A stretch of DNA of 64,000 nt from Candidatus Pacebacteria bacterium CG_4_9_14_0_2_um_filter_40_15 (lineage in GTDB: Bacteria > Patescibacteriota > Microgenomatia > UBA1400 > PJMF01), in NCBI GenBank assembly GCA_002788675.1, contig PFRS01000001.1, forward strand, positions 170,308 to 234,307. Reading direction: 5' to 3'. The position numbers and the translations under genes are program-made. Shown piece after piece: positions 31,828 through 51,700 of this stretch. The notes under the pieces were generated by a model that made no database searches, was not told the origin of the DNA, and was given only the letters and a program-made list of their open reading frames with translations. The stretch's first letter is position 1, and each line of letters begins with the position of its first letter.

Positions 31828-33540
31828 ATGGCAACAAAAGGAATAATTAAAGCTATCAGAAGCAACGTGACCGAAGTTGAATTTTTAGAAAATCAACCAA
31901 ATATTTTTGACGTGCTCACCGATCCCAACGATCCTTCTGTCCAGATCGAAGTGATCTCCTCTGCTGGCGATCAGCGCTATTTCTGTTTTATTCTTCGAGG
32001 CGAAAAAAAAATTACCCGCGGAACAGAAGTTATTTCTACCGAAAAACCACTTTCCATCCCAGTAGGAGATACCGTGCTTGGCCGAGCCTTCGACATTTTT
32101 GGCACTCCTCAAGATAGCGGCGCTGCACTTTCAACCAAAACAATTCGTCCAATCCATACTGGTGAGCGAACCTCCATTGAAGAAACCATAATTCCCTCTG
32201 AAATTTTGATTACCGGTGTGCGCGTGATTGATTTCTTTACGCCAATTCTTAAAGGTAGCAAAACAGGTCTTGTGGGAGGTGCTGGTCTAGGTAAAACCAT
32301 TTTACTGACCGAGCTGATTCATAATGTGGTCGAAACTAAAGCTACAAACAAACAAAACAAAGCTAACAAAACCGTCTCGGTCTTTAGCGCCGTTGGGGAG
32401 CGTTCTCGTGAAGCGCAGGAACTACTCGAAAACTTAAAAGACTCGGGTGTGCTGCCCAGCACAACCATGGTGATTGGACAAATGGGAGAAAACCCTGCAG
32501 TTCGTTTCCGTACGGCATCTGCTGCGGCCACCGTGGCCGAACATTTCCGAGATTCTGGTAATGACGTGCTCTTCTTTATTGATAATATGTACCGTTATAG
32601 TCAGGCTGGCTATGAATTAGCAACCTTAATGCGCGCTATTCCTTCTGAAGAAGGATATCAACCAACACTCCCTTCTGAAATTGGCACCTTGCACGAGCGA
32701 CTAGTCTCGAACAAGACTGCTCACCTCACCACCATCGAAGCCATTTATTTGCCTTCCGATGACCTGCAAGACTACAGTGTGCGCTCAACCTTCGACTACC
32801 TTGATAGTTACATTGTGCTCTCGAGAGATGTCTACCAATCTGGCCGCCTTCCCGCAGTCGATCTGCTCGACTCAAACTCGTCTGCTCTTGCTGTTGATGT
32901 GGTAGGAGAACGCCACTTCAACCTCTATTTGGAAACAAAAAAAATTCTCGAATCTGCAAAAGAAATTGAGCGAATTGTTTCATTGGTTGGTCTATCTGAA
33001 CTTTCAGTTGAAGATCAAAAAAAATACAAACGCTCTGTGCTGATCCAAAACTACATGACTCAAAACCTAGCAGTGGCCGAGCCACAAACAGGTCGTCCTG
33101 GTGTTTTTGCACAAGTTGAAACAACTCTTAACGATCTCGAAAAAATTCTTTCGGGCTCATTTGATGATGCTGACCCAGATCTCTTTTTGTACGTCGAATC
33201 TATTAAGGATGAGTGGAAAAATTCAGGTGGAGACTCAGCTGCCCCCAATTCAAGCGCTTTAGAGGAATCTCCCATCGCTATATCGACCGAAATCGAAGAA
33301 AACCAGCCTAAAACTGATCCAGCTGCCATTCCCATGGTACTTTCAGATAATGAAGCCAAAAAAATTGCTGCTGAAAAGCTAGCCGTGAAACAACGAAAAG
33401 AAGATAGCAGAACTATCGAAGAAAAGTATAAAACAACGCTACTCTCAAATGCTGAAGTTGCTGCCAAAACAGACATCAGCGAACACCTCGAAAATAAAGC
33501 GACTGAGTACACCCCAACAAAAATGGATTCCGACGAGTAA
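31828..33540 (+). CDS. atpD: F1 ATPase beta subunit with ~90-aa charged C-terminal extension
   Basis: GGAGLGKT P-loop, VGERSRE catalytic Glu, IDNMYRYSQAG, PSEEGYQPTL, AIYLPSDDLQDYS, LSVEDQ (DELSEED-like). The extension from about aa 478 (nt ~33259-33540) has no counterpart in canonical beta. Confidence 0.9.
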   Translation: MATKGIIKAIRSNVTEVEFLENQPNIFDVLTDPNDPSVQIEVISSAGDQRYFCFILRGEKKITRGTEVISTEKPLSIPVGDTVLGRAFDIFGTPQDSGAALSTKTIRPIHTGERTSIEETIIPSEILITGVRVIDFFTPILKGSKTGLVGGAGLGKTILLTELIHNVVETKATNKQNKANKTVSVFSAVGERSREAQELLENLKDSGVLPSTTMVIGQMGENPAVRFRTASAAATVAEHFRDSGNDVLFFIDNMYRYSQAGYELATLMRAIPSEEGYQPTLPSEIGTLHERLVSNKTAHLTTIEAIYLPSDDLQDYSVRSTFDYLDSYIVLSRDVYQSGRLPAVDLLDSNSSALAVDVVGERHFNLYLETKKILESAKEIERIVSLVGLSELSVEDQKKYKRSVLIQNYMTQNLAVAEPQTGRPGVFAQVETTLNDLEKILSGSFDDADPDLFLYVESIKDEWKNSGGDSAAPNSSALEESPIAISTEIEENQPKTDPAAIPMVLSDNEAKKIAAEKLAVKQRKEDSRTIEEKYKTTLLSNAEVAAKTDISEHLENKATEYTPTKMDSDE

Positions 33541-33543
33541 GAG

Positions 33544-33852
33544 TTGTTAACACAGGGCTCGGTCCTACACACTATGTCAAACATTCCAGATACATTTAAC
33601 CTTGTTGTCTACGACGAATCTGGCGAGCTCTTTTCAGGACCAGTAGCTGCCATTGAAGCAGTAAACGAAGCCGGACCCTTTAGTGTGCTCTCGGGGCACA
33701 CCAACTTTATCTCGGTGATTTCTGGATCGCTCGACAATAATAAACTAGTCATCCATTTTTTGGATGGCAACATGCGAGAATTTATTATTCAGCAAGGCGT
33801 TTTGAAAATATTCGAAAACGCCGCTGAAATTTTTCTGGTTTTTGAGACGTAA
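33544..33852 (+). CDS. atpC: F1 ATPase epsilon-like subunit
   Basis: FNLVVYDESGELFSGPVAAIEAVNEAGPFSVLSGHTNFISVI resembles the epsilon beta-sandwich. Likely start at ATG 33574. Confidence 0.6.
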   Translation: MLTQGSVLHTMSNIPDTFNLVVYDESGELFSGPVAAIEAVNEAGPFSVLSGHTNFISVISGSLDNNKLVIHFLDGNMREFIIQQGVLKIFENAAEIFLVFET

Positions 33853-33864
33853 AGTGTAGCTGGG

Positions 33865-36342
33865 CTACACCACAACCAAGTTGATAATCTTACCTGGAAC
33901 ATAAATCTCTTTTTTAATCTCTTTGCCTTGTAGATACTTCTGAATTTCTTCGGTTGTTCGGGCTCTCTCAAGAATTCCGTCCTCATCAGCAATATCTTCT
34001 GAAGCTACCTCTAACTGTGCGCGCACTTTACCATTAATTTGTACCGGAATAATCACTGCTTGAGCCTTTGCCAATTCTGGATCGAACACTGGCCAGCTGC
34101 TGGTATGCACAAAGTCTGTGTCTGCAACTCCAGTAACTTGGTGGTACAGTTCATCAGCCAAGAAAGGCGCAAACGGTGCAAACATTTTTGCAACTATTTC
34201 CTTTTGGGACACTGTCATATCTGCCCCACTCTTTTGAGCTGCTTCCCAAGCATTACTAAGTTTCATCAGTTCGGCAATTGCCGTATTAAACTTCAATTTT
34301 GGAATGTCTTCAGTTACTTTTTTGAGGGTTTGGTGAAGCACTTGTGTGAGTGAAATATCTTCATCTTTAGTAGTTGTTGGTGAGCTAACCAATCGATTAA
34401 TGCGTTGCAAGAATTTATACACTCCAATCACCGCACGAACATCCCATGGTTTGTCTGCTTCAAGAGGACCCATGAACATTTCATACACCCGGAGGGTATC
34501 CGCACCAAATTTTTCGATAATTTCGTCTGGATTAATAACGTTGCCTTTACTCTTACTCATTTTTTTGCCATCGGGACCTAAAATCATGCCTTGGTGACGC
34601 ATTTTTCCGAATGGTTCATCAAAAGCTAAATGGCCTTCATCTCGAAGGAATTTAGTGAAGAAACGAGAGTACAACAAATGCAACACAATGTGTTCAGGAC
34701 CAATCATGTAGAGATCGACTGGCAACCATTTATTCAGTTGCTCTGAGATTGCCAAGCTTTCAGTATTTCGAGAATCAACGTATCGCAGGTAGTACCAACT
34801 TGAATCAACAAAGGTATCCATGGTGTCAAACTCTGGGCGCCAGCCTTTTCCATAGAGTTTTTCGGTGCGTGCAATAAATTCTTTTGAAGATTTAAGTGGT
34901 GACTCGCCTGTTGGATTGAAGTCGACATCGGTGGGCAGCTGCCAAGGCAAGTGCTCTTCTTTAACAGGATGTGGATTGCCTTCTGGATCGTAGACTACTG
35001 GAATGGGTGTTCCCCAATAGCGCTGACGAGAAATTAACCAATCGCGAAGACGATACGTAGTTACGCGCTTGCCAAAACCCTCTGCTTCCATGTGATCCAT
35101 GATTTTTTCTTGGGCTTTAGAGACGCTCAAACCATCCAAAAAGTCGGAATTCATGATCACGCCATCATCTTCATAGACGTGCTCGGTAGCAGTGATATCA
35201 GAGCGATCACCGTCTGTTGCTTCAATTACTCGAATCACTTCTATTTTTTCGGCAGAACTGGTTACCTGTAGGTTAACAAACTTTACAAACTGGAAGTCCC
35301 GGACATCATGGGCTGGTACACCCACCACGGCACCAGTTCCAAAACTACCTAGCACAAAGTCGGACACCCAAACCGGCATGTCTCGACCAGTTAATGGATT
35401 GACCGCATAGAGTCCCGTAAACGCACCAGACTTCTTCTTGCCTTCTTGCTGACGTTCGAGCTCTGTTTTTTTCTCGGCTGCTTCTAGGTAAGCGGCAACG
35501 GTGGCGTTTTCTTGAGCAACTTCAATGGCCAGAGAATGTTCAGGGGCCAACACCACAAAGGTAGCTCCAAAGTTTGTGTCTGGCCGTGTAGTAAAGCAGG
35601 TAATAGATTTGTCTGAACCTTTAATTGGATAGGTAACTTCGATTCCTGTTTTCTTGCCAATCCAGTTAAGTTGTTGGGCTTTAGTTGGCTCTGGCCAGTC
35701 GACGGTGTCGAGTCCTGAGATAAGTTCATCCTTGTACTTGGTAATCTGGAAATACCACTGTTTCATGTCTTTTTGAATAACTTCACTGTCGCAGCGCTCG
35801 CAGAGTCCTTCAACAACTTGTTCGTTTGCTAACACGGTCTGACACGAAGGACACCAGTTCACTTTGCCATCTTTTTGATACGCCAGACCCTTGTTGTAGA
35901 GCTGTAGGAAGATCCACTGAGTCCACTTGTAGTAGCCAGGGTTGTTGGTGGCGATTTCGTTGTCCCAATCGTATGAAATTCCCAAGCGTTTAATTTGTCG
36001 ACGGAAGGTGTTGATGGCGTTCTTGGTGGTTTCTGCCGGATGGACACCAGTTTTGATGGCATAGTTTTCTGCAGGCAAACCAAAGGCATCCCAACCTACG
36101 GGGAAAAATACGTCCTTACCATTCATGCGATCGTATCGAGCTACAATATCGAGGGCAGTTTTGCTTTCAACATGTCCCACATGCAAACCAGAGCCAGATG
36201 GATACGCAAACGCAAAGAGCAGATACTGCTTTTGTACCAAATCTTGACCTTTTTTTTGGGTACCAAGAAACAAGCGGGCCTCTTCCCAAGCGTGTTGCCA
36301 CTTGGTTTCAACTGCTGTGTGATCGTAGTACTCTTTTGGCAT
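33865..36342 (-). CDS. leuS: leucine--tRNA ligase
   Basis: 825 aa. HVGH (HIGH) and KMSKSKGN motifs, CP1 editing insertion. Confidence 0.92.
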   Translation of the reverse strand: MPKEYYDHTAVETKWQHAWEEARLFLGTQKKGQDLVQKQYLLFAFAYPSGSGLHVGHVESKTALDIVARYDRMNGKDVFFPVGWDAFGLPAENYAIKTGVHPAETTKNAINTFRRQIKRLGISYDWDNEIATNNPGYYKWTQWIFLQLYNKGLAYQKDGKVNWCPSCQTVLANEQVVEGLCERCDSEVIQKDMKQWYFQITKYKDELISGLDTVDWPEPTKAQQLNWIGKKTGIEVTYPIKGSDKSITCFTTRPDTNFGATFVVLAPEHSLAIEVAQENATVAAYLEAAEKKTELERQQEGKKKSGAFTGLYAVNPLTGRDMPVWVSDFVLGSFGTGAVVGVPAHDVRDFQFVKFVNLQVTSSAEKIEVIRVIEATDGDRSDITATEHVYEDDGVIMNSDFLDGLSVSKAQEKIMDHMEAEGFGKRVTTYRLRDWLISRQRYWGTPIPVVYDPEGNPHPVKEEHLPWQLPTDVDFNPTGESPLKSSKEFIARTEKLYGKGWRPEFDTMDTFVDSSWYYLRYVDSRNTESLAISEQLNKWLPVDLYMIGPEHIVLHLLYSRFFTKFLRDEGHLAFDEPFGKMRHQGMILGPDGKKMSKSKGNVINPDEIIEKFGADTLRVYEMFMGPLEADKPWDVRAVIGVYKFLQRINRLVSSPTTTKDEDISLTQVLHQTLKKVTEDIPKLKFNTAIAELMKLSNAWEAAQKSGADMTVSQKEIVAKMFAPFAPFLADELYHQVTGVADTDFVHTSSWPVFDPELAKAQAVIIPVQINGKVRAQLEVASEDIADEDGILERARTTEEIQKYLQGKEIKKEIYVPGKIINLVVV

Positions 36343-36404: not shown

Positions 36405-36455
36405 AAAAAATCCCCTGGTGGGGATCATTTTTTTCTGTATGAAAAACCCCACTGT
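36405..36455 (-). promoter_or_regulatory. attenuator-like terminator/antiterminator hairpins in the leuS 5' leader
   Basis: On the minus strand, GTGGGG (rc of 36447-36452) is followed by ATCCCC-acca-GGGGAT and then TTTTTT (rc of 36410-36434). The CCCCAC segment can pair with either partner. It lies about 70 nt upstream of the leuS ATG. Confidence 0.4.
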
Positions 36456-36545: not shown

Positions 36546-37262
36546 ATGACAAGGCGCCCACAAGACATGTATACTGAGGCTATGCAAATGGATAAGCGAC
36601 TTCCCTTTTTTATACTCAGTTTTGTGCTCATTGCCGTTTGGATCTCAGTTCCCTTCCTGTATACCTACTCTCTCCAGTTAGTGGCACTCACCTTTCTGCT
36701 TTTTATTTGGCTTCGTTTTAAACATAATCGAGAGAATGTTACTCAAATTATCCCCTCAAAAGGAAGCTCTGAGCTTATTCCCATTACAATCGTTTTTATG
36801 CTCCTTATCTCCGCTACCGGGAACACCCACTCTTGGGTGTACTCACTTACCTATGTGTATCTTTTTATCATGCTTTTCTCCCTGCCAAGAGGTACCGCAA
36901 TCATCATGGCCACCGGGACCTTATTACTCCAAGCCTTCTTAGTACACACATTTTCAGCTCAAGAACTCATTATTTTAATGAACATTCCAGTCATCACAAC
37001 AGTACTCCTCTTTGCAAAACAGCAGTATGAAAAAGCTACCCTCGAAGAGGAAATGCTTATGGAAGAAGACGAGCAACTTTCGTCCTCACTTACTGAAAAT
37101 GCTGCCTTGGAGTCATATATCAAGGAGTTTCTCTTACCTAAAACTGAGGTACTTTCGTCTCTAGAGGAGCCACAAACTGAACTCGAAAAAACACTCCATT
37201 CACAAATAACGTTGATCAGCACTGAGAGTCGAAAAATACTGGAGCGATCACAACAACAGTAA
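36546..37262 (+). CDS. polytopic membrane protein with acidic coiled-coil C-terminus (first gene of the surface-protein operon)
   Basis: Four to five hydrophobic helices, then a glutamate-rich tail (EEEMLMEEDEQLSSSLTE...). No family recognised. Confidence 0.5.
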   Translation: MTRRPQDMYTEAMQMDKRLPFFILSFVLIAVWISVPFLYTYSLQLVALTFLLFIWLRFKHNRENVTQIIPSKGSSELIPITIVFMLLISATGNTHSWVYSLTYVYLFIMLFSLPRGTAIIMATGTLLLQAFLVHTFSAQELIILMNIPVITTVLLFAKQQYEKATLEEEMLMEEDEQLSSSLTENAALESYIKEFLLPKTEVLSSLEEPQTELEKTLHSQITLISTESRKILERSQQQ

Positions 37263-37276
37263 CTATACAATTAACT

Positions 37277-38032
37277 ATGTCTACACGCACGCTCACCAGA
37301 ATTATTTTGAGCAGCCTTTGCTTACTCTGCCTGACGGCATTTTCTTGGCGCATATCTGAAGTTCAAGCAGAGCGACTAGAGTCCGACTCATACGTGATTC
37401 AATTTGGCAACTTCAACGTAACTTCCGGAGAAAAAAGTTCGAGTAACTACAACGTCACCGATACTGTTGGTCAAACCGCCGCCGGCGCGTTTGGAGAGTA
37501 CGGGACCTCTGGCTACTTTGTTGGGGCAGGTTTTCAATACATTTACCAAATAAAGACTTTTAGCTTCATCATTAGTGACCTCACTATGGATCTAGGAGAA
37601 CTAACTGACGGTGCCTTTGGCACTGACAATCACACTCTCGAGATAACTACACGAGGAGCTGGTGGCTACACAATCTATGCCTACGAACAACACCCCCTCC
37701 GCATTCCAACAACAAGCTACATAATTAATGATACAACTTGCGATGCAGGCACCTGTACAACCTCAGCAGCCAGTATTTGGACCAATCCCAGCATCGATGG
37801 CTTTGGATTCAATATTCAAGGTGATGACATTCCAACAGATTTCGTAAATAACACCTACTTCCGTCCATTTGCTAATGACGAAGCAGCAGCTACCATGCAA
37901 CCAGTAATGTCATCTTCCAATATTGCCTTGCAACGTACTTCGACGGTAACCTATCAAGCCGCAAAAGCCGGAGATACAGCCGCTGGTCAATTCCAAACTG
38001 CCGTAGTGTACGTCGCTGTACCAGGATATTAA
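37277..38032 (+). CDS. secreted WxL-like (small) surface protein
   Basis: Signal peptide. Homologous to the C-terminal domain of the 505-aa neighbour. Shared landmarks are L..LGEL, TTCDAGTC / ATCTGDSTASNC, GFGFNIQG / GFGYSLDN and a hydrophobic Y-rich C-terminus. Confidence 0.5.
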   Translation: MSTRTLTRIILSSLCLLCLTAFSWRISEVQAERLESDSYVIQFGNFNVTSGEKSSSNYNVTDTVGQTAAGAFGEYGTSGYFVGAGFQYIYQIKTFSFIISDLTMDLGELTDGAFGTDNHTLEITTRGAGGYTIYAYEQHPLRIPTTSYIINDTTCDAGTCTTSAASIWTNPSIDGFGFNIQGDDIPTDFVNNTYFRPFANDEAAATMQPVMSSSNIALQRTSTVTYQAAKAGDTAAGQFQTAVVYVAVPGY

Positions 38033-38034
38033 GT

Positions 38035-39000
38035 ATGAACAAAAAAAGAACTCAAAAATTCATTTCTGCACTAGCTCTTAGTGTGGTACTTGGCTTAGTA
38101 TCTTTGTACCCAAACTCTGTTTCTGCACAAGGTTTTAATCTTACGGTCACTCCTGAAGTACATTACATGCGAATAAAACCAGGCTCAAAGATACGTCACA
38201 CCATCACTCTCGAAAACAAAGGTGACGTAGCTCTGACAGTAACCCCCACAATCTATGACTTTGAAGCGGATGGTGAGTCTGGACGAGCAATCCTCAAAAG
38301 TGCCACCACATTCCCATATCTAGATCTCGAACACATTCAGAACAGCTCACTCACCATACCTCCACATAAACGAGCTCAGCTTGGGCTACTCTTTTCTGTT
38401 CCAGAAGATGCCCCCGAAAAGGAATACCCCCTTACGGTACTCTTTAAAAGTGAACCCGTGCAGTCTCAGACAGAGACTTCACAATCTCAACTAGTTGGTG
38501 CGATAGGAAGCAATCTTATTGTACTTATTTCTCAAGATGAACAAACTTCAGACTTAATAAATATTGATTCAATATCAATCCCCTTCTTTGTTGATAGTTT
38601 TAAAAAGGTTACCTTACAACCTAAGATAAAGAACAATCACTTTGCCGCTACAAACACAGCTGGAACGGTGATTGTGAAGAATATGTTTAACACTGAAGTT
38701 GCTCGATTTAATATTTTTCCAGATACAATCTTGGGATACAGTTCAAGAATACTTAGAGCCCTCAAGACAGAATTTCAACCAGATATCGAGCCAGAGGCTG
38801 TGCCTTTTGCATTTAAACCATCATTTCTTCTTGGTTTATATACAGTAGAAGTCAGCATTACTGCCCCCTATACCAGTGCATATTCTGATGAAGTAATTGC
38901 ATTCGACACTTTTACGTTCTTTGCAGTACCTATTATTCCAATACTGGTTGGGTTGCTGGGAATTGTGAGTGCCATTGGGTATGTGATATATAAGAAATAA
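38035..39000 (+). CDS. DUF916/DUF3324-like surface protein: signal peptide, Ig-like beta domain, C-terminal TM anchor plus KK
   Basis: FNLTVTPEVHYMRIKPGSKIRHTITLENKGDVALTVTPTIYDF Ig-like strand pattern. Single C-terminal TM (AVPIIPILVGLLGIVSAIGYVIYKK). Confidence 0.45.
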   Translation: MNKKRTQKFISALALSVVLGLVSLYPNSVSAQGFNLTVTPEVHYMRIKPGSKIRHTITLENKGDVALTVTPTIYDFEADGESGRAILKSATTFPYLDLEHIQNSSLTIPPHKRAQLGLLFSVPEDAPEKEYPLTVLFKSEPVQSQTETSQSQLVGAIGSNLIVLISQDEQTSDLINIDSISIPFFVDSFKKVTLQPKIKNNHFAATNTAGTVIVKNMFNTEVARFNIFPDTILGYSSRILRALKTEFQPDIEPEAVPFAFKPSFLLGLYTVEVSITAPYTSAYSDEVIAFDTFTFFAVPIIPILVGLLGIVSAIGYVIYKK

Positions 39001-39077
39001 ACTGGTACTTGAAGCCCACACCCTTTCCGTTTAGACTGGATCTAGGTCAAGAATTTGGTCGCTATTGTAGGTATGCT

Positions 39078-40526
39078 ATGAAACATCGTAAATCAAAAAA
39101 ACTCATTGTGTTATCAACTTTTATTCTTGCCATCGCAGTTGCAGGAAAATGGGCACAAAATAGCGAGTCTGCTAGTTTAACTTCTGTTTCGGTTACCGTC
39201 TCAAACCCACGTCCTTCTTTTAGAGGTGTACTTGGAGCTGGAAATACTGTTGGAACTTCACAAGTTATTATTAATACTTCTGGATATCCTTCAACTACAA
39301 CAGCTCAACTCCAAACTGATGACATTCTCTTAGTAGGTAATGCAGGTACCATGAGTCCTTATACCATTACTAATGTAGTAAGTAATTCACTGGCAAATAT
39401 TACTCCAGTCCTTGCTGCTGGTGATGCCGATACTTCTGATGATGTCATTTCAACCCAATCTGCCGTTCATACCGTCAGATTTACTACTGCTAACGCTATT
39501 TCAAATGGTGGGTTTAGAATTTTAGTTCCTGCTCATGGAACTGCTACTGATGCAAATGATGGTCTACCTGATCAAGGCGCCTTTGATTTCGGAACAGCTG
39601 CCCCAACCGTGACCTGTCCAACAGACATAACTGGGTATGATTTTGTTACAGGTACTGCAACTGCAAGTGCTGTAACAATCGGAAGTACTGACTATCATGC
39701 ATATGAGTGTCTGTATTCTGGAGTTGGTGCTATTGCAACTGTCTTTGATGGCACAACCAATGATGCTATATCTATTAACGACATTATAAATCCAGCACCT
39801 GCTAGTGGCCACACAACAGGCACCGCAGATTCATACAGAATCATCCTCCAACATTTAGACAGTTCATACACAGCTGTAGATAGTACCACTGTTGCTATTG
39901 GCGTTATAGAAGCTGTCCGTGTAACTGCAAGCGTCGCACCACAGATTACCTTCTCTATTGCTGGTGTAACCAGTGGATCAACTTCATGCGGAGTAACCAC
40001 AGACGTCACAACAACCGCAACTGCTGTTCCACTTGGTGAACTATCTATCGCTTCTTTCACAGATGCAGCACAAACGCTGACTGTCTCAACTAATGCTACA
40101 AATGGCTATGCTGTAACCGCTTTCGAGAGTGACCAACTTGGACTCGATGGAGCAACATGTACCGGAGATAGCACTGCTTCAAACTGTATTCCCGATTCAG
40201 TTGGTGACAATGCAGCACTCAGTCATACTGCTAATGATGAATGGAATACCACAACAGTAAAAGGATTTGGATACTCTCTGGACAACGCAGATGCAAATAC
40301 TGTCGCTTTCGAGTACACAACAGCTACCGGTACCTGTACTGGAACATACTGTGCAAAGCAATTTGCAGATAACGAGGATGGCCAGGCAGCGCAACAACTC
40401 TTTAGTAGCACAACAGTGGCAGACAGTGAAAATGTTGATGTCTGCTACAGAGCTGTGATCTCAAACGTACAAGCCGCTGGTTTTTATGAAAACTACGTAA
40501 CCTATACTGCTACTGCTACATTCTAG
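39078..40526 (+). CDS. secreted WxL-like (large) surface protein, Thr/Ala-rich
   Basis: Signal peptide MKHRKSKKLIVLSTFILAIAVAG (ATG 39078; TTG alternative at 39009). The C-terminal ~190 aa are homologous to the 251-aa protein. Confidence 0.5.
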   Translation: MKHRKSKKLIVLSTFILAIAVAGKWAQNSESASLTSVSVTVSNPRPSFRGVLGAGNTVGTSQVIINTSGYPSTTTAQLQTDDILLVGNAGTMSPYTITNVVSNSLANITPVLAAGDADTSDDVISTQSAVHTVRFTTANAISNGGFRILVPAHGTATDANDGLPDQGAFDFGTAAPTVTCPTDITGYDFVTGTATASAVTIGSTDYHAYECLYSGVGAIATVFDGTTNDAISINDIINPAPASGHTTGTADSYRIILQHLDSSYTAVDSTTVAIGVIEAVRVTASVAPQITFSIAGVTSGSTSCGVTTDVTTTATAVPLGELSIASFTDAAQTLTVSTNATNGYAVTAFESDQLGLDGATCTGDSTASNCIPDSVGDNAALSHTANDEWNTTTVKGFGYSLDNADANTVAFEYTTATGTCTGTYCAKQFADNEDGQAAQQLFSSTTVADSENVDVCYRAVISNVQAAGFYENYVTYTATATF

Positions 40527-40542
40527 TACTCAGAAAGAACAA

Positions 40543-41589
40543 ATGAAGACTGCCCGCCCAATTCACACTCTTAAAAAAATTGCTACCTTAGCTGACGCTT
40601 TAGGAGTTGGAACCTTACTGTTCTCGAATACAATTTTTGCTCAAGACTTCACTCAGACTGATGATACGGTAACCCTTACAGCCATCCCGCCAAGAGTTGG
40701 TGATCAAGAACCAATTAAGCTTGCTCCTGGTGCTAAAGAACAAGTGCAACTTAGAATTAGGAATAATTCAACAAAAGCCATAACCATCAACTCGGTTGCT
40801 CAAGATTTTATGCTTGATCTTGATGGACAAACCCCTATTCCACTTAACGAAGATTCAGGAAGTAGATGGAGCTTAGCAGACTGGCTCGTTGTCGCACCAA
40901 ATCAACAAACTATTGAACCACAAGAAACTGCTGGAACTTCTGTTCTTATCGAAGTTCCTGAAGATGCTCTCCCTGGTGGGCACTATGCAATGGTTACCCA
41001 CGAACCAACCACTGGAGTTGTTTCCGAAGATGGTGAATCAGCTTCTGTAATCAGTCAAAAAGTTGGTTCTCTCTTTTATGTTATCGTTGATGGCGTTATT
41101 CATGAGGAAGCCTTTATTCGCGACTTCTCATTTCCCCAGCTCACAGAAGTCGGACCTGTTGATTTTTCATTCTTTGTTGATAATCAATCTGATATTCACA
41201 TCAAGCCACAGGTTTCAATTGAGATCTATAACCTCTTTAACCAAAAAATTGACACTATCCAGATAGAGAGCAAAAATGTATTCCCATTATATAGTCGTGG
41301 TTTCTCTGGAAGTTGGGATCGTGTTTGGGGTCATGGTTTTTACACTGCCAAACTCATAATGAGTTATGGTGAACAAGGAAATGTTGCACTTGCTTCAACT
41401 ACTTTCTGGCTCTTCCCAGTCAAGATAGTACTATCAATATTGGTTATTATATTGGTCCTACTTGCAATGCTCATTTCAATCCGAAGACATATCTTGCACA
41501 AAAACCAAGATAAAGACAAACAGATCAAAGAATTAGAGGATCAGCTAGCTGAAGTCAGTAAAGATCAACTCGAAAAACACGAAGAATAG
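40543..41589 (+). CDS. DUF916/DUF3324-like surface protein with C-terminal TM and charged cytoplasmic tail
   Basis: Signal peptide, two beta-rich domains, TM (VKIVLSILVIILVLLAMLI), then a lysine/glutamate-rich tail. Confidence 0.45.
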   Translation: MKTARPIHTLKKIATLADALGVGTLLFSNTIFAQDFTQTDDTVTLTAIPPRVGDQEPIKLAPGAKEQVQLRIRNNSTKAITINSVAQDFMLDLDGQTPIPLNEDSGSRWSLADWLVVAPNQQTIEPQETAGTSVLIEVPEDALPGGHYAMVTHEPTTGVVSEDGESASVISQKVGSLFYVIVDGVIHEEAFIRDFSFPQLTEVGPVDFSFFVDNQSDIHIKPQVSIEIYNLFNQKIDTIQIESKNVFPLYSRGFSGSWDRVWGHGFYTAKLIMSYGEQGNVALASTTFWLFPVKIVLSILVIILVLLAMLISIRRHILHKNQDKDKQIKELEDQLAEVSKDQLEKHEE

Positions 41590-41595
41590 TTACAT

Positions 41596-43653
41596 GTGCG
41601 ATGGAAAAATTTCCTTCTACCACTGCTTCTAGGTAGTTTGCTCTTTTGCATACCTGCAGGAGTGTTTGGTCAGGATGCAGGAGTCTTACCTGGTGAAACG
41701 CTTTCAACAAACCCCAAAGAACGCCCTGAGTACGTCACAGCAATAGTTCCTGATATCGTTCCACCATCAACTCCTATCCTTATTAGTCCTGAAGATGAAA
41801 CGGTGCTTACCGTATCCGCACCAACCTTTGAGTGGCAAGGCTCCACTGACAATGTTGGGGTAGATCACTACCAATTTTGGTTTGATGGGGTACTGCTTTT
41901 TGATTCGATTCCCACAACAGCAACTGCTAACTCTGAATACACGCTACTGTATGACAGTTTACTTAATCACTACTTTTTAACTCCTAAGACTCCTCTGTCA
42001 GATGGTTCCCATACCTGGCAAATACATGCGTATGATGCTGCCGATAATTACTCAGAGTCAGTGATCTGGAGTTTTATCATTGATACCACTGCACCCTACT
42101 TCAAGATTACAGATATTGGACCAGAAATAGTCGACATTAATACGGGAAATGCTGAAAGCGTTCCAACAGATGCCATTCACTTGGCAGATAATGAACCATT
42201 GCTCAAGGGTACGGGCGAATCAAACGCGACAGTTCAACTTACTATCACAATCCCAGGTGATCCCACACAAAACCATTCATTTTCTGTCGACGGAAGTGGA
42301 AATTGGGACTTTCAAGTTGGCATTCTGCCTCGAGACACTGAAATAACATTCGACTTCGTTATTTCAGACAGCGCTGGAAACATATCAGTGATTAGTGGAC
42401 TAAAAATAATCATTGATCCGATTGTTATTATTATCCCACCTCCATCCCCCATACCCACACCAACACCAAGCCCATCACCCACCCCTGGAATAACACCCAC
42501 ACCAAGTCCATCACCAACACCGGGAGTAAGTCCTTTTCCTTCACCCAGCCCTAGCCCTGAGGCAAGCCCAATTATTGTCATTCCAATATTGCCTCCTCGA
42601 GAAATAATTCATGAGATTGTACAAGAAAGCCTGGAAGCAATACCTGTGGAAATTTCAAGCTCACTACCTGTGCAGCTATTCTTAAGCATTGGTCGAGCAC
42701 TTGACTGGATAGCTCCAGCTGGAGCTCTGTTACTCACAGCAGCCCCTCCATTGCTCACGCTTTTATCATTACTCCTTCAGTTCGGAGGAAGTCTAACCTG
42801 GCAGCTTTTGTTACGCCTACTTCAAGCATTAGGTCTGCTTCCTGCCAAAGATCCACAAGGAATTGTGTATAACAGTGAAACAAATGAGCCTGTTCCCTTT
42901 GCATTACTTACCATTCAAAGCGTTGATCCTGATGCAGGTATATTTGAAACAGTCGTCACAGATGAAAATGGCATATACCAAGGCATTCAACTCCCAAGAG
43001 GAAAATATACAATAACGGTTACACACCAGGACTTCGTCTTCCCTACGGCCAAAGTAAAGCCGAAATACTTGACGAGTTCTGACTTTTATACAGGTGAGGT
43101 CTTCAACGTTACCAGTGACGAGACGCATCAGCTGTTCCTTATACCAGTAGACCCGAAAGAAACCAGTCAAAAAGAAAAAACACTCAAGAGCCGACTTAAT
43201 TTGACCGTGGCACGGCTCAGAATGAAGAACATTATCGTTCCGATGTTCAGCATCTCCCTGGTAATAACCATAATCAGTCCCTCTTGGCTGAACTATCTAG
43301 TAATAGCATGCTATCTACTGGTCTTTGCCCAAAAGTACTTTTTTACAAATAGAAGAGCCAACGTCCGAGGCACAATTACGAACAAAGCTGGAGAACCAAT
43401 ACGAGACGCAATTATCAAGCTGAGTGATCCAAATACAACTGACTTAGTGGTTCTAGTATCTTCAAATAAAAAGGGACAGTATGCGGCACACTGTCCACCA
43501 GGTAAGTACTACATCACAGTCACCAAAATGGGCTTTGTATGGTATCGTGAGACTGGTAGTATGAGATTTGAAGAATTAACCGTTGAAGACGTTACTATTG
43601 AATATAATGTAACACTCACATCAACTGAAGAAATCACCGTCTCGCTTTTGTAA
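41596..43653 (+). CDS. large surface protein: Ig-like domain, PT/PS-rich linker, TM segments, two Cna-B/CarboxypepD_reg (transthyretin-like) domains
   Basis: GTG start right after the upstream stop. Signal peptide. PTFEWQGSTDNVGVDHYQFW Ig-like motif. IPTPTPSPSPTPGITPTPSPSPTPG linker. VVTDENGIYQGIQLPRGKYTITV and GQYAAHCPPGKYYITV Cna-B-like motifs. Confidence 0.55.
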   Translation: MRWKNFLLPLLLGSLLFCIPAGVFGQDAGVLPGETLSTNPKERPEYVTAIVPDIVPPSTPILISPEDETVLTVSAPTFEWQGSTDNVGVDHYQFWFDGVLLFDSIPTTATANSEYTLLYDSLLNHYFLTPKTPLSDGSHTWQIHAYDAADNYSESVIWSFIIDTTAPYFKITDIGPEIVDINTGNAESVPTDAIHLADNEPLLKGTGESNATVQLTITIPGDPTQNHSFSVDGSGNWDFQVGILPRDTEITFDFVISDSAGNISVISGLKIIIDPIVIIIPPPSPIPTPTPSPSPTPGITPTPSPSPTPGVSPFPSPSPSPEASPIIVIPILPPREIIHEIVQESLEAIPVEISSSLPVQLFLSIGRALDWIAPAGALLLTAAPPLLTLLSLLLQFGGSLTWQLLLRLLQALGLLPAKDPQGIVYNSETNEPVPFALLTIQSVDPDAGIFETVVTDENGIYQGIQLPRGKYTITVTHQDFVFPTAKVKPKYLTSSDFYTGEVFNVTSDETHQLFLIPVDPKETSQKEKTLKSRLNLTVARLRMKNIIVPMFSISLVITIISPSWLNYLVIACYLLVFAQKYFFTNRRANVRGTITNKAGEPIRDAIIKLSDPNTTDLVVLVSSNKKGQYAAHCPPGKYYITVTKMGFVWYRETGSMRFEELTVEDVTIEYNVTLTSTEEITVSLL

Positions 43654-44358: not shown

Positions 44359-45117
44359 TTATTTGACTAAGAAGCCTGAAAAGGCTGACTGAAATTGTGA
44401 AAGAACTTTCCGAGCTGAAATAGCATTTGGATAGTAATAAGCAACTAAACCGTTATCTTCTTGCAATGTATCCCGAAAACGATCATAAGCCGTAATAAAC
44501 ACCTTTTTCTGTTGATCAGTCAGACCATCCCCCTCGGCAAATTGTGCTAGCAGCTGACTAACCTCAGTGCTAATACTTGAGTAAGCAGTGGCTAAGTCAC
44601 TCAGTGAAAAGTTTCGGATAACGGTACTTCTCTCAAAGCCAAATTTCCATGCATCTATAGAGAAAAGTGCTATTGAGTGTGGATACATTTTTTTACACAG
44701 CAGGTATAGCTCTTGAGAAAGTGAGCCTGGGACACAATATACGCCACGACTTAATTGAATCGCATGCTCTGCTACGAGCTGTGAGCGTAGGTATCTAAAC
44801 TGTGGATCACTGCTGGGTGCCTCTTGAAAGACGATACACTCCCATTCGCCAGAGTACGAATCCCATTTAGAATCTAAAGCCGGAAATTGGGCGTTGAGCT
44901 GCTCGATACCTTTGTCTGTTAAGTAATACCTCAGCTCCTGCCCTATCTTCTCGGTGGAAAAGATTCCTGATTTCGATAAATAGTGCAATATTGAACGAAC
45001 ACCGCCATCAGTTGTATTTTGTAGCAATTGCTGAGCTGCATCAGTTGTAACAAACGCATCTTGACTCCCTAAAACTGGGTACGCAAGCATTGCTAGTGAG
45101 AGGGCATTTTTTTTCAT
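44359..45117 (-). CDS. PaaX-like (winged-helix) transcriptional regulator-domain protein
   Basis: SKWDSYSGEWECIVF...QLSRGVYCVPGSLSQELY resembles the PaaX central and C-terminal W..W / GVW..P motifs. Lies in an AT-rich island divergent from the 18-kb gene. Confidence 0.4.
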   Translation of the reverse strand: MKKNALSLAMLAYPVLGSQDAFVTTDAAQQLLQNTTDGGVRSILHYLSKSGIFSTEKIGQELRYYLTDKGIEQLNAQFPALDSKWDSYSGEWECIVFQEAPSSDPQFRYLRSQLVAEHAIQLSRGVYCVPGSLSQELYLLCKKMYPHSIALFSIDAWKFGFERSTVIRNFSLSDLATAYSSISTEVSQLLAQFAEGDGLTDQQKKVFITAYDRFRDTLQEDNGLVAYYYPNAISARKVLSQFQSAFSGFLVK

Positions 45118-45735: not shown

Positions 45736-48700
45736 ATGACTGCCCAAAGCAAATATCTTTCTAGCATTTTCCTTTCACTTTCCACATTTTTGGAAAGTGC
45801 TTTGTCACACACACACGAGCGCGATGAAGCGCACGCTGTATTCACTGAGTTCGTTGCATCCAAAGCTTCACTGTCATCACAGTGGCAGCTGAGTGAATTA
45901 CACCGGTTTTTAACCAATTCAGCTGCTCACCAGACAGTAAGCCCCTCCGTGCGAGATGCTTTGATGATGTTTGTCCAAAAATATCCACCCTACCAGACTA
46001 GCGTTTTTCTTCACGAATATCTTTTAGCACTCAAAGCTGACAACTGCTCAAGCTCAACCATCAAAAATTACCGCAGTGATATCAACCAATTTGTTAGTTT
46101 TACCAATGAAACTGAGGTAGAAAAAGCCTTCACAAAACCCAAAGCTGAACTTTTCATTGCTGCACAGGCAAATAAAGATTTGAAGGAATCCTCTATCAGG
46201 CGTAAGCTCGTGAGTATTGTTCAGTTCTCTCTCTGGTTGCAGGCAGAGGGTGTCCTCCATTCAGTTTCAGAAATCGAGACTCTCTCAGACAAATTACCCC
46301 AACTTATTGAGAAAGCACCTCAAAAAGATATTCCAATCCAGGAGCCTACTCGACGATACTCTTCTGTGCCAACCTCAAGTGCATCATCATTTGCCACCGC
46401 AAAACACACTCTACACAATCAATCTAACGCCCAATCTAGTCAAGATATACGATCACGTATCAAATCAGGTCTGGCAACCATTCAAAATAAGATCCAACCT
46501 CAAGCAAAAAAACAGGCTCTGCCTTATCTAAACCTGGCTATTATCATGCTTTTTGCAGTCACACTCGGCTTCTTTGGCTATCGCCAGTTTGTGGCTGATG
46601 CAGACAAGCCTTTAGCCTACCCAACCAGTCCTACCAGGCCAAACCGCGTACTCCAATTCCAAGGTCGCCTTACTGACACCAGCCAAAACCCTATTACTAC
46701 CGCCACAGACATGGCTTTCCGCCTGTACGACTCTAATTCTGGAGGCACTCTGCTCTGGAACTCTGGCACCTGTAGTGTGACTCCAGATCAAGACGGTATC
46801 TTTAATGCCGATTTAGGCAGCAGTTGTGGAACTGAAATTTCTGAAAACGTCTTCACCGAGAACTCCAACGTCTGGCTCGAGGTCGAAATCGACACTGAAA
46901 CCCTTTCTCCTCGACAAAGCATCAAGACCGTTCCGTACGCGCTTAACTCTGAAACTCTCCAAGGCTATCCCATAGAAGCAACAGGTGCCGCTATAAAGAA
47001 CACCGTGGTTACTATGAATAACAATGGCGAGGTGATCTTCGGTGAAGTTTCGCCAACTCTTAAAGCTGTTTCGGGTAATTTCTCGATTGAAGCCGAAACC
47101 CTCACTCTTAAAACAGCGGCTGGCTCAAACGGTAATATTGCCCTTTCTCCAGATGGCACTGGCGACGTACTAGTAAACTCCGACCTTTTTGTTGATGGCT
47201 ATATAGCTGCTCCCGGTGCCACACTCAGTGCCACCTACGCTGGCGGCACTGCCCTGATTGCCCGAGGTGGACCAAGTGGATCCGCTAACATTCAGGTGTG
47301 GCAGAATAATGCCGGTAGTGCTTTAAGTGTGGTGGATGAGAGTGGGAATATTGGAATTGGAACAAGTAACCCAAATGAAGCATTAGAACTTGGTTCAGGA
47401 AAATCATTACGCTTTAATTCGTTAGATGCAAATCACATAAGATTTTATGACAGCACTACTGAAACAGCATTCATTCGAACAGAATTCTCGGGAGTCGGTC
47501 CAACTGGAAATGATTTAATTTTGGGATCTGATCTTTCTTCACAAACACTGGTTCTTGAAAGAGGTGGAAATGTGGGCATAGGCACTAACGATCCTTCTGC
47601 GCATCTCCAGATTGCTAACAAAGGTGAAGCAACTGGAACATACCTACTCCGCGTTGATGGAAGTGCTGCTGCAGGAGGCTTCAAGGCTTTTGGGAACAAT
47701 ATTGAATTACTTACATACCGAGGAAGCATGAATGAATTGAGAGTTGGTGGCGCTTATCTAAGTACTAATCCTCCAGCAAGTGGCGCAATCATTGAAGGAA
47801 ATGTAGGTATTGGATCAAGCATACCTGCCCAAAAACTCGACATCGTCGGCAACCTCCAATTCTCCGGCGCCCTCATGCCATCTGGAGCTGCAGGAACCGC
47901 AGGCTACGTTCTGCAATCTAATGGTATTGGTGTGGCTCCAACTTGGGTAAGTTCAGCTACTCTACCTGGATCTGGCCTCTGGGACGTGACTGCAAATGTC
48001 TTTCATCCTAAAGAAGCCTATGGTGACGTTGTTGATCTTGCCATTGGTGGCACCTCAACTGCAAGTGCAGATATTTTGCTTCAGAGTAATGGCAGAGCAT
48101 ATTTTGGGGGAAATGTAGGTATTGGAACAGCTTCTGGTTCATATCCACTTCAAGTTGAAGGAGATGCTCTTATTCATACTGCCAGCAGTTATCTTTACTT
48201 AAGTAGAACAAATACCAATAACCGCATGAACTATCGATCTTGGGACATTGATTATGGTGCTCGAGCTGACATTAGAAATATTAATGCTGCTGGTATTCTT
48301 TCTTTCTGGACTGGTGGAACAGCAGCTGCTAACCAAAGAATGACTATTGCTGCAGATGGCAACGTCGGTATCGGCACCACTTCTCCCGTTGGCCTTCTTA
48401 ATGTCGAAGGAGCTGCCATAGGAAAAGCCCTATCTATCCTGAACGAAACGGGTAATCAGGCAATTTTTGTTGCCTCTGCATCGGGAACGAACAGATTTAT
48501 TATTCAGAATGATGGCAATGTTGGAATTGGCACCAGTGCTCCAACTGCCTTGTTCCAAATCAGTGATCGGTGGCAAGGAACAAACTCAACATTTGGATCT
48601 ACCAACTCTTCGGGAGCACAACTCAACTACACGGGTAGTGTCGCTACTCCAATCTTCACCTTCACCGGGGATACTGATACAGGTATAGGCAGAGGTGGGG

Positions 48701-51700
48701 CAAATATTCTTAACTTCTTTACCAATAACACTGAGCAAGTGCGTATCGCATCGGATGGCAACGTCGGCATCGGCACCACAAACCCTCAAGAAAAATTAGA
48801 TGTCTTGGGTGATGTGCGAATTAGAAACACTTCAACTAACACTTATTACTTTAACTACAACACCGTGCATGGTGATGGCCGCCAAGAGCTAGAACATATT
48901 GGCGCTGGAGGAACTAGTAGAGTTTTCGAGGCAAATGGTGGTAGAGCCATAGGATTTGGCCCAGAATGGGGAGCATCTGCTTGGGGAATCACTGCTCCTA
49001 TCTTAACAACTTCTAACTCACTTGCTTTAGTTGGTCACATAGTAGGTGGCGGTTTGATCACGAGCGGTACCCATAAAAGTTTGCTTATTGGTACGCCAGA
49101 ATCAAGTCCCACCACAGGTTATGGTATTACTGATACTATCGACCTAGGAACAGTATCATTTGCCTCAAATACTTGGTCTGGAACTCGCCCTGCAATGAGG
49201 TATACCGCTTCTGAACACAATTTCAGAGTTAACTCTGGTACAGGAAATACTAACCCAGGAACTTCAGCTCTCTTTATTGATGCAAATGGAAACATCGGCA
49301 TTAGTTCTGAAACCCCAATCGGTTTATTCAATGTTGATGGCGCCGCCATCGGCAAAGCCCTCGTCATCCTCAATGAAACCGGCAACCAAGACATCATCGC
49401 AGCAAGTGCCAGTGGCGTAACCCGCTTCCGCGTTGCACAAGATGGCTATGTCTACGGTGAGCGCTTCACCGACATTAGCAACAGCACCTACTACGTTGAC
49501 CCTGCAGCTGTAACCACTTCTGCAATTCTTAATGGAAACGTAGGTATCGGAACAACTACAGCCAACTACACTCTCGACATAGACGGTGAACTCAATCTAA
49601 CGGATGCCATCCGTGTTGCAGGAGACGCAGGCACCTTGGGTTGGTTCCTCACTTCATCCGCTGGTGGAGTTAACACCTGGACCGACCCTGCCAGCATTAC
49701 TGGTGCTGGCTACTGGGCTGAAACAGATGGCGTGCTGCATCCAAAGTCTCCTTATACCAGTGTTGTCGACCTCGCTCTTGGTGGAAATTCTACTGCGAGT
49801 GCAAATATTCATCTTCAATCTAATGGTAAAGCTTACTTTGCGGGGAATGTGGGCATTGGTACTAACTCTCCTATCGGCCTTCTTAACATCGAGGGAGCCG
49901 CCACTGGCAAAGCCCTAGCCATCCTCAACGAGACAGGTAATCAAGCAATCTTCACCGCAAGTGCAAGTGGCGTCAGTAAGGTTACTATTGCTAACTCTGG
50001 TAATGTTGGTATTGCAACCACAGCTCCTCAAGAAAAGTTGGTTATTGCGTCTACTGCTGATCAAAATACTAGATTACATCTAAAAGAGACGGGGATAAGC
50101 TGGTCAAGACCAATCGACGGCTTTTACGGATGGTCGTCCACAGCGGGATCAACTTCAATTACCTCAGATAATGATGTGAGTAACACTCCTGCCCTGACTT
50201 ACAATGCTTATACAAATCACATCTTCCAAGTAAACCAAGGCACACTCTCTCAAGGATTGTTTATTGGAAGAGACAGTACCAGCGGCTTTGCCAAAGTTCG
50301 TGTTGGTACAGGAAGCACGAGCGCCACATCCTCACTACTCAGTGTTAATGGTAGCGCAACTATTGGAAATGGTTACATCAGTAGTACAGCTCCAACAAAT
50401 GGCTTACTTGTTCAAGGCAATGTGGGCATTGGCCTTACAAACCCATCATATCTACTCCACGTAAATGGTGCTTCACAAATTGATACTCTGCGCATTGATC
50501 AAAACGCTAGTAATACTCGCCTTTTTACAGGTGCCACTTTAGAACTTCAATCAAATATTGGTGGAGCATCATCTGCTGTTAAGATCAGCAGAAACGGTGG
50601 AACTGCTATGAGTTCTGGTTACACATTACTTGAGCTAGGTGGATCCGATATTGCTTCCATGCCATCAGATGGATACTTACTAAAAGCGTATGATAAATTC
50701 GTTATTCAGGGTTCTGGCAACGTCGGTATCGGCTCAATCACCCCTGCCTACAAACTCGACGTTACTGGCGACATTAATTTGACCGGTGCCCTTCGAGTAG
50801 CTGGCGATGCAGGTACGAGCGGGTACATTTTAACCTCAACCGGAGGCAGTGCTAACCAATGGACAAATCCAGACGATATCTTCACCGCTGGCCTCTGGAA
50901 AGAAACAAATGGTGTGTTTCATCCAAAGACTCCTTACACTGACGTTGTTGACCTTGCATTGGGTGGTAACTCGACTGCGAGTGCAAATATTCATTTGCAA
51001 TCTAATGGCCAAGCATATTTTGGAGGTAGTGTCGGCATAGGCTCCACAACTCCAGGAACAACCCTCGATGTAACAGGCACCGGCCGCTTCTCTAGCACTC
51101 TGACCGCTTCCAATGGCCTTACTCAAACAACAGGTGCTCTTAACTTGACTGCTACCAGTGGAGCTCTCAGCTTATCTGGACTAAGTGCTTCTTCTATAAA
51201 TACTGGCGCTAATGCTCTTACCTTTACATCTAGTAACTTCAACACGACTGGTACTGGTATCAACACCACAAACATTGGTGCTACTACAAGAGGTACCGGT
51301 GCATTCACAACTCTTGCTGCTAATAGCACAGTTACTCTTACTGGAGTAGCAACTGGCACAGACAACACCGTCCTCGTTCTTAACGGTTCTAACCAAGTGA
51401 TTAGTGATGAAATTGATCCTAGAGTCTGGGGTACTACTTTAGTTGATGGTTCTGGTACTACTAACTATCTACCTAAGTGGACTCCAGATGGAGATTCACT
51501 TGGCAATTCTATTGTCTATGACAATGGTACTAATGTAGGAATTGGAACAAACAATCCAGGTGGTAAATTGACAGTTGCAGGATCAACAGGTATTTCGAGA
51601 TCTGTAAATATTGATAATAGTGAAATTAAATTTAGAGGTGATGGAGTTGCTCATATCTCAATATTTGGCCCAGATACAGGCAGATCAAATCTTCAAATTA

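Follow-up and report, generated by a model that had tools for sequence, protein, structure and literature searches.

A conserved six-gene surface operon in a Candidatus Pacebacteria genome: a probable variant of the Pam pilus system with chaperone-like proteins of the WxLIP superfamily

A large part of bacterial diversity belongs to the Candidate Phyla Radiation (CPR), or Patescibacteria, whose members live attached to other cells. To our knowledge, the structures through which they attach are barely known. Here we describe a cluster of six genes, g1 to g6, from a metagenome-assembled genome of Candidatus Pacebacteria (Minisyncoccota, a lineage of the CPR). The cluster lies in a stretch of 64,000 nucleotides of contig PFRS01000001.1 (positions 170,308 to 234,307 of the forward strand), hereafter the window. 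We compared it with the Pam pili of CPR bacteria and with the WxL (or Csc) surface clusters of Bacillota, and we propose that it is probably a Microgenomatia/Pacebacteria-type version of the Pam pilus operon, encoding a filament that is assembled without an usher, with the help of chaperones and by donor-strand exchange.

Two filaments of Ca. Mycosynbacter amalyticus were solved by cryo-electron microscopy (cryo-EM) by Troman et al. (bioRxiv 10.64898/2026.03.03.709456). In that system, the pilins PamA and PamB have two domains, of which the C-terminal one is truncated, Ig-like, and completed by a strand from the adjoining subunit; the single-module subunit PamT forms the tip. The chaperones PamC and PamD resemble PapD and FimC but, unusually, carry a C-terminal transmembrane (TM) helix, and PamR is an RbmA-like terminator or anchor made of two fibronectin type III domains and a C-terminal TM helix. 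The neighbours of the pam operon are ATP synthase genes and a gene for a tail fibre-like protein. According to the same preprint, Microgenomatia hold distant PamA homologues; its neighbourhood analysis covered close PamA homologues only, most of them from Saccharimonadia. The NCBIfam models NF058579 (PamT) and NF058581 (Pam pilin C-terminal domain) derive from this work, and both the models and the preprint date from 2026.

The second system of comparison is defined by the presence of at least one WxLIP gene adjacent to the genes of at least two WxL proteins (Hassan and Williamson 2022/2023, PMC9772566, PMC10599100). WxL domains have been predicted to be incomplete sandwiches that are completed by a strand of the WxLIP protein (PMC9772566, PMC10599100).

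The cluster had been recognised in a first-pass annotation of the window, made from the sequence letters without database searches, as six co-directional open reading frames (ORFs) between positions 36546 and 43653; these are present, all on the + strand (Table 1). The six-gene order is reproduced in two other CPR contigs (L001 and L002), with protein identities of 29-66%, and in both of them the cluster is flanked by the gene for leucyl-tRNA synthetase (LeuRS) on one side and by a divergent gene for a protein of about 250 aa and the gene for a giant protein on the other. Since the same genes, order and flanks recur in two further CPR contigs, the arrangement is not due to chance. We conclude that the cluster is a real, conserved, and functionally coherent operon.

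Spacing between the genes is short. Four gaps (14, 2, 16, and 6 nt) fall within the 2-20 nt originally given for the whole cluster, while the gap between g3 and g4 grows from 8 to 77 nt when the start of g4 is moved from the TTG to the ATG codon. We made this revision because the homologues of g4 are 482-490 aa long, spanning 95% of the 505-aa query; the true start is thus most likely the ATG codon at 39078 (MKHRKSKK...), and not the TTG at 39009.

The small protein g2 and the large protein g4, both with signal-peptide-like N-termini, are related to each other. The similarity of g2 to the C-terminus of g4 was detected by BLASTP (E-value 3e-10), and a profile alignment of residues 103-248 of g2 with residues 316-479 of g4 (482-aa numbering) using hhalign reached a probability of 99.2% (E 2.7e-19). 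As judged from these comparisons, one domain is common to g2 and to the C-terminal ~165 aa of g4. In g2 this domain (residues ~103-251) contains one invariant Cys pair (155/160), and the protein also has a conserved N-terminal region of about 70 aa. In g4 the domain (residues ~313-482) is preceded by a conserved inter-domain segment and by an all-beta N-terminal domain of about 280 aa that has no counterpart in g2. The protein is rich in Thr, Ser, and Ala, with Thr accounting for 15.8% of its residues, and eight of its Cys do not vary among 46 homologues. Modelled with AlphaFold2 (predicted local distance difference test score, pLDDT, of 89.7), g4 has two domains and is all-beta, and a Foldseek search of the PDB with this model gave weak matches to CfaB and CfaE (class-5 pilins/adhesins), PapG, and FocH. 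Hence, the first description of a small and a large, Thr-rich secreted protein in which the former is homologous to the C-terminus of the latter was accurate.

No Pfam family was found for either g2 or g4. Meanwhile, both proteins displayed similarity to the models derived from the Pam preprint. The g2 protein matched the PamT model NF058579 with 36.3 bits (E 3.8e-9), with residues 13-153 aligned to positions 6-141 of the 241 in the model, and it matched the pilin-domain model NF058581 with 20 bits (E 5.5e-4) over all of its 148 positions. At its C-terminus, g4 matched NF058581 with 22.8 bits (E 7.7e-5, model positions 2-148 of 148). These matches extend to the families of both proteins, in which they were counted at E<=0.01 or 0.001. 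NF058581 was matched by all 39 homologues of g2 and by 30 of the 46 homologues of g4 (best E 1.5e-8). Among 110 diverse representatives of 50%-identity clusters of the small-subunit family, 89 matched NF058581 and 77 matched NF058579 (best E 1.2e-16); the best E-value of NF058581 across the families scanned was 1e-11.

The curated NCBIfam cut-offs are 240 bits for NF058579, an equivalog model, and 55 bits for NF058581. The g2 and g4 families appear to be a separate subfamily, and not equivalogs of the M. amalyticus proteins, because their scores are well under these cut-offs. Within this subfamily, g2 is best described as a homologue of PamT and not as its equivalog. The small-subunit family is very large, comprising 1,229 clusters at 50% identity (E<=1e-3). 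We propose that g2 is a PamT-like single-module subunit and a candidate tip or initiator of the fibre, and that g4 is the candidate major two-domain pilin. Proteins of the g2/g4 type are listed as hypothetical in genomes because they fall under every curated cut-off.

Searches of PDB sequences with phmmer and with profiles, using g2, g4, and the pilin-family alignments, retrieved no Pam or WxL chain; the PamA/PamB entries 25PZ and 25QA were apparently outside the searched set. Members of the small-subunit family also displayed scattered weak matches to Pfam families (E 0.01-0.04, none of them significant alone), namely SCPU/spore coat protein U, GBS104-like tip pilin Ig, Enas, PapD-like, and PapC_N. 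The pilus-related theme of these families is consistent with a pilin-like fold. Across genomes, identities are 57-62% for g2 and 49-66% for g4, compared with about 60-68% for LeuRS, and the chaperone-like and membrane components of the cluster have diverged far more. For secreted proteins, this LeuRS-like level would not be expected of subunits exposed at the surface or acting as adhesins, and it points to strong purifying selection on the pilin-like genes.

The chaperone-like proteins g3 and g5 are paralogues, as evidenced by BLASTP (E 4e-11) and by the hhalign comparison of g3 with the g5 family (97.6%, E 2.8e-12). Both have a signal peptide and a C-terminal hydrophobic segment, which in g3 spans residues 286-321 and corresponds to a TM helix. 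In g5, a DUF916-like domain (45-155) and a DUF3324-like domain (174-290) are followed by a TM helix from residue 293 and by a charged cytoplasmic tail. By homology to g5, g3 is also predicted to have two beta-sandwich domains. This is the architecture that the first-pass annotation had proposed for the two proteins, along with their link to DUF916 and DUF3324. The family of g5 is characterised by a near-invariant LPGGHYAM motif and by a conserved beta-strand at residues 174-182 (VGSLFYVIV).

Three lines of evidence connect these proteins to WxLIP. The g5 protein itself matched the Pfam family PF06030 (DUF916, WxLIP_PGBD) with an E-value of 5.8e-4 and 20.3 bits (the gathering score is 27.3), but 36 of its 50 homologues matched the family at E-values down to 2.7e-7, and some of them carry a precomputed PF06030 assignment or the NCBI name 'DUF916 domain-containing'. 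PF11797 (DUF3324) itself gave no sequence match. In addition, we built a profile from eight bona fide WxLIPs, which, like the 10-22 WxL domains used below, were taken from annotated plasmid and genome loci of Lactococcus, Lactiplantibacillus, Levilactobacillus, Enterococcus, and Vagococcus; one WxLIP query yielded only six genome loci. The alignment of the g5 family to this profile extended over 228 columns and through both the DUF916 and DUF3324 regions (probability 95.3%, E 2.1e-8); for g3 the probability was 86% (E 4.9e-6), while the cross-family controls for the WxLIP comparison returned no score. Finally, the AlphaFold2 model of g5 (pLDDT 79.9) consists of a pair of beta-sandwich domains with a long TM/cytoplasmic helix, and its top Foldseek matches in the PDB were the Enterococcus faecium WxLIP structures 9i1y and 9i25, the latter bound to a long WxL protein (E 7.9e-13 for both). 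Next came CfaA, YadV, CupB2, Caf1M, FimC, DraB, and CsuC (E 4e-10 to 1e-7), and also RbmA. Because of the PF06030, profile-profile, and Foldseek matches, we regard g3 and g5 as members of the WxLIP superfamily. Their architecture is that described for PamC and PamD, to which they were likened by description.

Entries 9i1y and 9i25, released on 2026-01-28, are the main reference against which a relationship of WxL to Pam can be judged. The best tblastn match among plasmids to a fragment of E. faecium WxLIP1 (53% identity) was an unannotated region of CP069367.1 (102088-102468), a record labelled Klebsiella pneumoniae, which could be mislabelled or chimeric, or could reflect a transfer from a Gram-positive donor.

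The Pam preprint nowhere mentions WxL, DUF916, or DUF3324 (10.64898/2026.03.03.709456). Likewise, no paper in the searchable literature ties WxL or DUF916 to CPR bacteria, or Pam to WxL systems. The homology between Pam-type chaperones and WxLIP seems to be unreported so far within the literature that we searched.

The remaining two genes encode lineage-specific membrane components. As first described, g1 is polytopic with an acidic tail: it has about five hydrophobic segments (residues 17-159, from hydropathy) and a Glu-rich C-terminal tail that is probably helical. It has no Pfam or NCBIfam family, although it is the conserved first gene of the cluster, with syntenic orthologues of 29-35% identity. 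A resemblance of g1 to MASE3-type sensors (E 0.29) was dismissed as noise. The g6 protein has a signal peptide, Big_13 Ig-like domain(s) (59 bits), a linker rich in Pro, Thr, and Ser (PT-rich), two CarboxypepD_reg transthyretin-like domains (65 bits), and hydrophobic segments at residues ~372-397 and ~543-578. Its syntenic orthologues carry the same Pfam domains, and among PDB sequences it matched the Ig/linker region of internalin K (E 1.2e-5). The domain layout originally read from its sequence was therefore sound, except for the Cna-B label, as the only Cna-B-like Pfam matches were marginal (SpaA, 25.2 against a cut-off of 23.1) or under threshold (SdrD_B). This protein may be a cell-proximal anchor or an adhesin.

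Taken side by side, the cluster and the Pam system display several likenesses. Both belong to CPR hosts and have ATP synthase genes and a giant fibre-like protein nearby. The predicted model of g4 is that of a Sec-exported, two-domain, all-beta pilin with paired cysteines, g2 resembles the small single-module PamT, and g3 and g5 correspond, by description, to the two paralogous PapD-like chaperones with a C-terminal TM helix. Neither system has an usher. In total, four of the six testable Pam features are found here or supported by homology; one, PamR, is missing.

Several points weigh against this assignment. Every score to the Pam models is far under the curated cut-off (36 against 240 bits; 20-23 against 55 bits), so that under NCBI rules g2 and g4 would not earn Pam names, and no NCBIfam Pam chaperone model matched g3, g5, or the g5 family. 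There is only one shaft-type pilin where M. amalyticus has PamA, PamB, and PamE. The RbmA-like anchor is also missing: none of the six proteins has the architecture of PamR, and no NCBIfam PamR model matched g6. Meanwhile, the conserved polytopic g1 and the Big_13/CarboxypepD_reg protein g6 are additions with no described Pam counterpart. Furthermore, PamA-E, PamR, and PamT of M. amalyticus were set beside the locus by means of NCBIfam models and published descriptions, and both the filament and its donor strand are predictions for this lineage.

Other kinds of pili were considered as well. A sortase-dependent pilus was rejected, as the cluster has no LPXTG motif or sortase, and so was a type IV pilus, as there is no class III signal peptide, no prepilin features, and no ATPase.

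The genomic neighbourhood of the cluster is summarised in Table 1. The context of ATP synthase and giant-protein genes is also found in L001. The giant protein starts with a Phage_int_SAM_1-like domain (residues 93-172, E 2.6e-7) and a TM segment and continues for thousands of residues in which 'GNVGIGT'-type repeats recur. L001 and L002 also have giant ORFs at this position, with N-terminal 1500 aa that are 36-50% identical. This protein is probably the 'tail fibre-like protein' of the Pam preprint, and it is an uncertain member of the system. It is odd for a giant surface protein to carry a SAM-like domain of the DNA-binding type at its cytoplasmic end. The 252-aa protein encoded between the cluster and the giant ORF has orthologues at the same position in L001 and L002 (32-34% identity), and might be a regulator or accessory factor of either adjoining unit; whether it belongs to the system is uncertain.

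Table 1. Genes of the six-gene cluster and of its surroundings, with positions counted from the first nucleotide of the window
Feature	Position	Strand	Product and remarks
g1	36546-37262	+	238 aa
g2	37277-38032	+	251 aa
g3	38035-39000	+	321 aa
g4	39078-40526	+	482 aa from ATG; alternative TTG at 39009 gives 505 aa
g5	40543-41589	+	348 aa
g6	41596-43653	+	685 aa; GTG start
ATP synthase beta + epsilon	31828-33852	+	Upstream of the cluster
LeuRS	33865-36342	-	Flanks the cluster
Divergent neighbour	44359-45117	-	252 aa; no known Pfam family; between the cluster and the giant ORF
Giant surface protein	45736-63675	+	5979 aa
Second very large ORF	20444-27316	-	2290 aa; upstream of the ATP synthase operon

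The ATP synthase genes have peculiarities of their own. The beta subunit (570 aa) is extended at its C-terminus by about 100 aa of acidic, low-complexity sequence, while the epsilon subunit has only 102 aa, and its L001 orthologue matches only the family of the N-terminal domain (ATP-synt_DE_N). Between the start region of the divergent LeuRS gene (- strand) and g1 lies a G+C-rich hairpin (36410-36425) flanked by T-runs on both strands (ATCCCCTGGTGGGGAT). This element upstream of the operon has the appearance of a bidirectional terminator. A scan for promoters and terminators gave a count of promoter-like signals equal to that expected from shuffled sequences, and the sole match of an Rfam scan of the window was a tRNA distant from the locus.

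The first-pass annotation had likened the cluster to WxL loci, and its small and large proteins to WxL proteins. We found no match to the Pfam WxL family (PF13731) among 195 members of the families concerned (0/39, 0/110, and 0/46), even at E<=1, and their membership in it is unproven. Of the profiles named in that annotation, PF06030 and CarboxypepD_reg were thus found, while PF13731 and PF11797 gave no sequence match. Profiles of the CPR C-terminal domain (with up to 5.5 effective sequences) aligned to WxL profiles with P-values of 0.005-0.007 and a probability of about 6%. This was repeated with 10 and 22 WxL sequences, with full-length and C-terminal-domain-only profiles, and in local and low-mact modes, and P was never below 0.005. 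For comparison, unrelated families reached P-values of 0.011-0.23, and reversed profiles of 0.39-0.79.

The alignment itself is collinear over 129-142 columns. It keeps in register the first strand and an FG, a GY opposite the GW of the first WxL motif, and a C-terminal Tyr or Phe opposite the Trp of the second motif, together with the conserved Pro that follows. The domain of g2 and g4 therefore has Tyr or Phe at both positions of the eponymous Trp, whose absence had been pointed out from the outset. The observed score was reached by none of 200 column-shuffled decoys and by one of 200 block-shuffled decoys (empirical p about 0.005). The context agrees with that of WxL domains as well: the domain is always C-terminal, it occurs in a small and a large protein, and the genes adjoin those of WxLIP homologues. 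Collectively, this weak and collinear similarity is suggestive only; we do not claim homology, and we consider the chance that the two domains are truly homologous to be roughly even.

Hence, the locus is not classed as a WxL cluster, because it encodes WxLIP homologues but no recognisable WxL domains. The notion of a relative of the WxL system is not refuted, since a relationship to WxL, DUF916, or DUF3324 is not wanting in every member of the cluster, as g3 and g5 demonstrate. The suggestion that such a relative was possibly undescribed is out of date, because the closest characterised system is the CPR Pam pilus, for which NCBIfam models matching the pilin-like proteins now exist (preprint of 2026).

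The comparison with WxL/Csc clusters can be extended beyond this domain. Shared features are the homology of g3 and g5 to WxLIP across both domains, with the same TM anchor; the combination of a small protein consisting of approximately the shared domain only with a large protein that has it at its C-terminus; the collinear order of motifs in that domain; and the predicted principle of a WxLIP strand completing an incomplete beta-sandwich. As for the differences, there are not two proteins with a PF13731 domain and the Trp-x-Leu motifs are absent, two WxLIP-like genes are found where one is usual, and no LPXTG-type motif occurs at the C-terminus of any of the six proteins, whereas the real clusters used for comparison carry LPXTG genes. 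Moreover, the host is a CPR bacterium and not a member of the Bacillota (Lactobacillales, Listeria, Enterococcus), and WxL systems are not known to form filaments.

A more distant likeness exists to chaperone-usher systems (Pap/Fim, CFA/I class 5, Caf1, Csu), in the two-domain fold of g5, in the weak structural matches of g4, and in donor-strand complementation and exchange, which we infer for this locus. In contrast to those systems, there is no outer membrane here and the cluster has no usher-like protein (Pfam/NCBIfam), the chaperones are membrane-anchored instead of soluble, the subunits have two domains, and no sequence similarity is detectable (11-13% identity in structural alignments).

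Based on these findings, we propose the following mechanism. All subunits would be exported by Sec, as suggested by the signal peptides read from their sequences, and g3 and g5 would remain in the cytoplasmic membrane through their C-terminal helix. As suggested by their homology and fold, each of them would supply the beta-strand that the Ig-like C-terminal domain of a subunit lacks, in a manner resembling chaperones of the PapD/FimC type and WxLIP acting on WxL. The best candidate for the chaperone's donor strand is residues 174-182 of g5, which have an alternating-hydrophobic pattern and come after the LPGGHYAM motif and a low-confidence loop. By homology to PamA and PamB, g4 would repeat to form the shaft, and each incoming g4 would use one of its strands to displace that of the chaperone and to complete the C-terminal domain of the preceding subunit. 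Candidates for this strand are the conserved mature N-terminus of g4 (SASLTSVSVTVSN) and the inter-domain segment at residues ~278-296. The g2 protein would nucleate the fibre and end at its tip, as PamT is proposed to do; this role is suggested because g2 has the acceptor domain but no N-terminal domain and linker like those of g4. More speculatively, g6 and possibly g1 could form a membrane-proximal base in place of PamR. By analogy with Ca. Mycosynbacter amalyticus, the filament would probably mediate contact with the host cell. Assembly by donor-strand exchange at this locus is a prediction.

An alternative is that the cluster encodes a non-filamentous surface complex of the WxL/Csc type, with g2 and g4 as monomers or small complexes held by g3 and g5 through permanent strand complementation. 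The WxL clusters of enterococci and lactobacilli are currently modelled as such complexes without polymerisation, the solved 9i25 has a WxLIP bound to a long WxL protein, and WxLIP is the strongest cross-phylum homology of the locus. The small/large pair with a common C-terminal domain mirrors WxL clusters as well, and the collinear alignment with Tyr or Phe in place of Trp, which so few decoys equalled, also speaks for this alternative. We nevertheless consider this alternative unlikely, given the absence of PF13731 matches and the hhalign probability of about 6%, while the shared domain matches a pilin model whose founders form filaments resolved by cryo-EM. The cluster also has no LPXTG partner, and the envelopes of CPR bacteria are unlike the thick peptidoglycan that WxL domains reportedly bind. 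Such a complex is in any case compatible with a pilus, and the two explanations converge, if WxL and Pam systems are related. Less probable still is an S-layer-like envelope module unrelated to pili, in which g4 would be a Thr-rich wall protein, abundant and possibly glycosylated, with g3, g5, and g6 as its membrane tethers. The unusual conservation of the pilin-like genes for adhesins would fit such a module, as would the Thr/Ser/Ala-rich composition of g4 and a weak NCBIfam similarity of g6 to the linker region of an anammox S-layer glycoprotein. This last match involves only the low-complexity PT linker (29 residues, 17 bits). Furthermore, g4 and g2 specifically match the Pam pilin C-terminal domain, and the chaperone-type fold of g3 and g5 has no role in known S-layer systems.

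The cluster is thus of a kind already known, that of the Pam pilus, and the Microgenomatia-type operon is a distinct variant of it. This variant has a single shaft pilin, lacks PamR, adds g1 and g6, and lies outside the neighbourhood analysis of the preprint. The kinship of g3 and g5 with WxLIP hints at a common origin of Pam and WxL systems. We put the chance just short of even that the Pam pili of CPR bacteria and the WxL/Csc clusters of Bacillota both descend, as separate branches, from a single ancient system of bacteria without an outer membrane. In both branches, membrane-anchored chaperones of the WxLIP type would complete an incomplete C-terminal beta-sandwich, and the WxL domain would be the Trp-bearing version of the Pam pilin C-terminal domain. 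The mechanism by which WxL proteins are attached has been debated since 2006. If this common descent is true, WxL proteins may owe their assembly, and perhaps also a polymerisation, to donor-strand exchange, and the Pam 'chaperones' may double as membrane anchors.

These findings have implications for the understanding of both systems. They connect the pili of CPR bacteria with the virulence and adhesion clusters of Gram-positive bacteria, two fields that currently do not cite each other, and make the donor-strand assembly of WxL proteins a testable idea. Meanwhile, they indicate that the Pam-type system is widespread and that, in Microgenomatia-type genomes, it is strongly conserved and combines a simpler set of subunits with two extra membrane components. 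Such a second, independent operon architecture helps to sort out which parts of the Pam system are essential.

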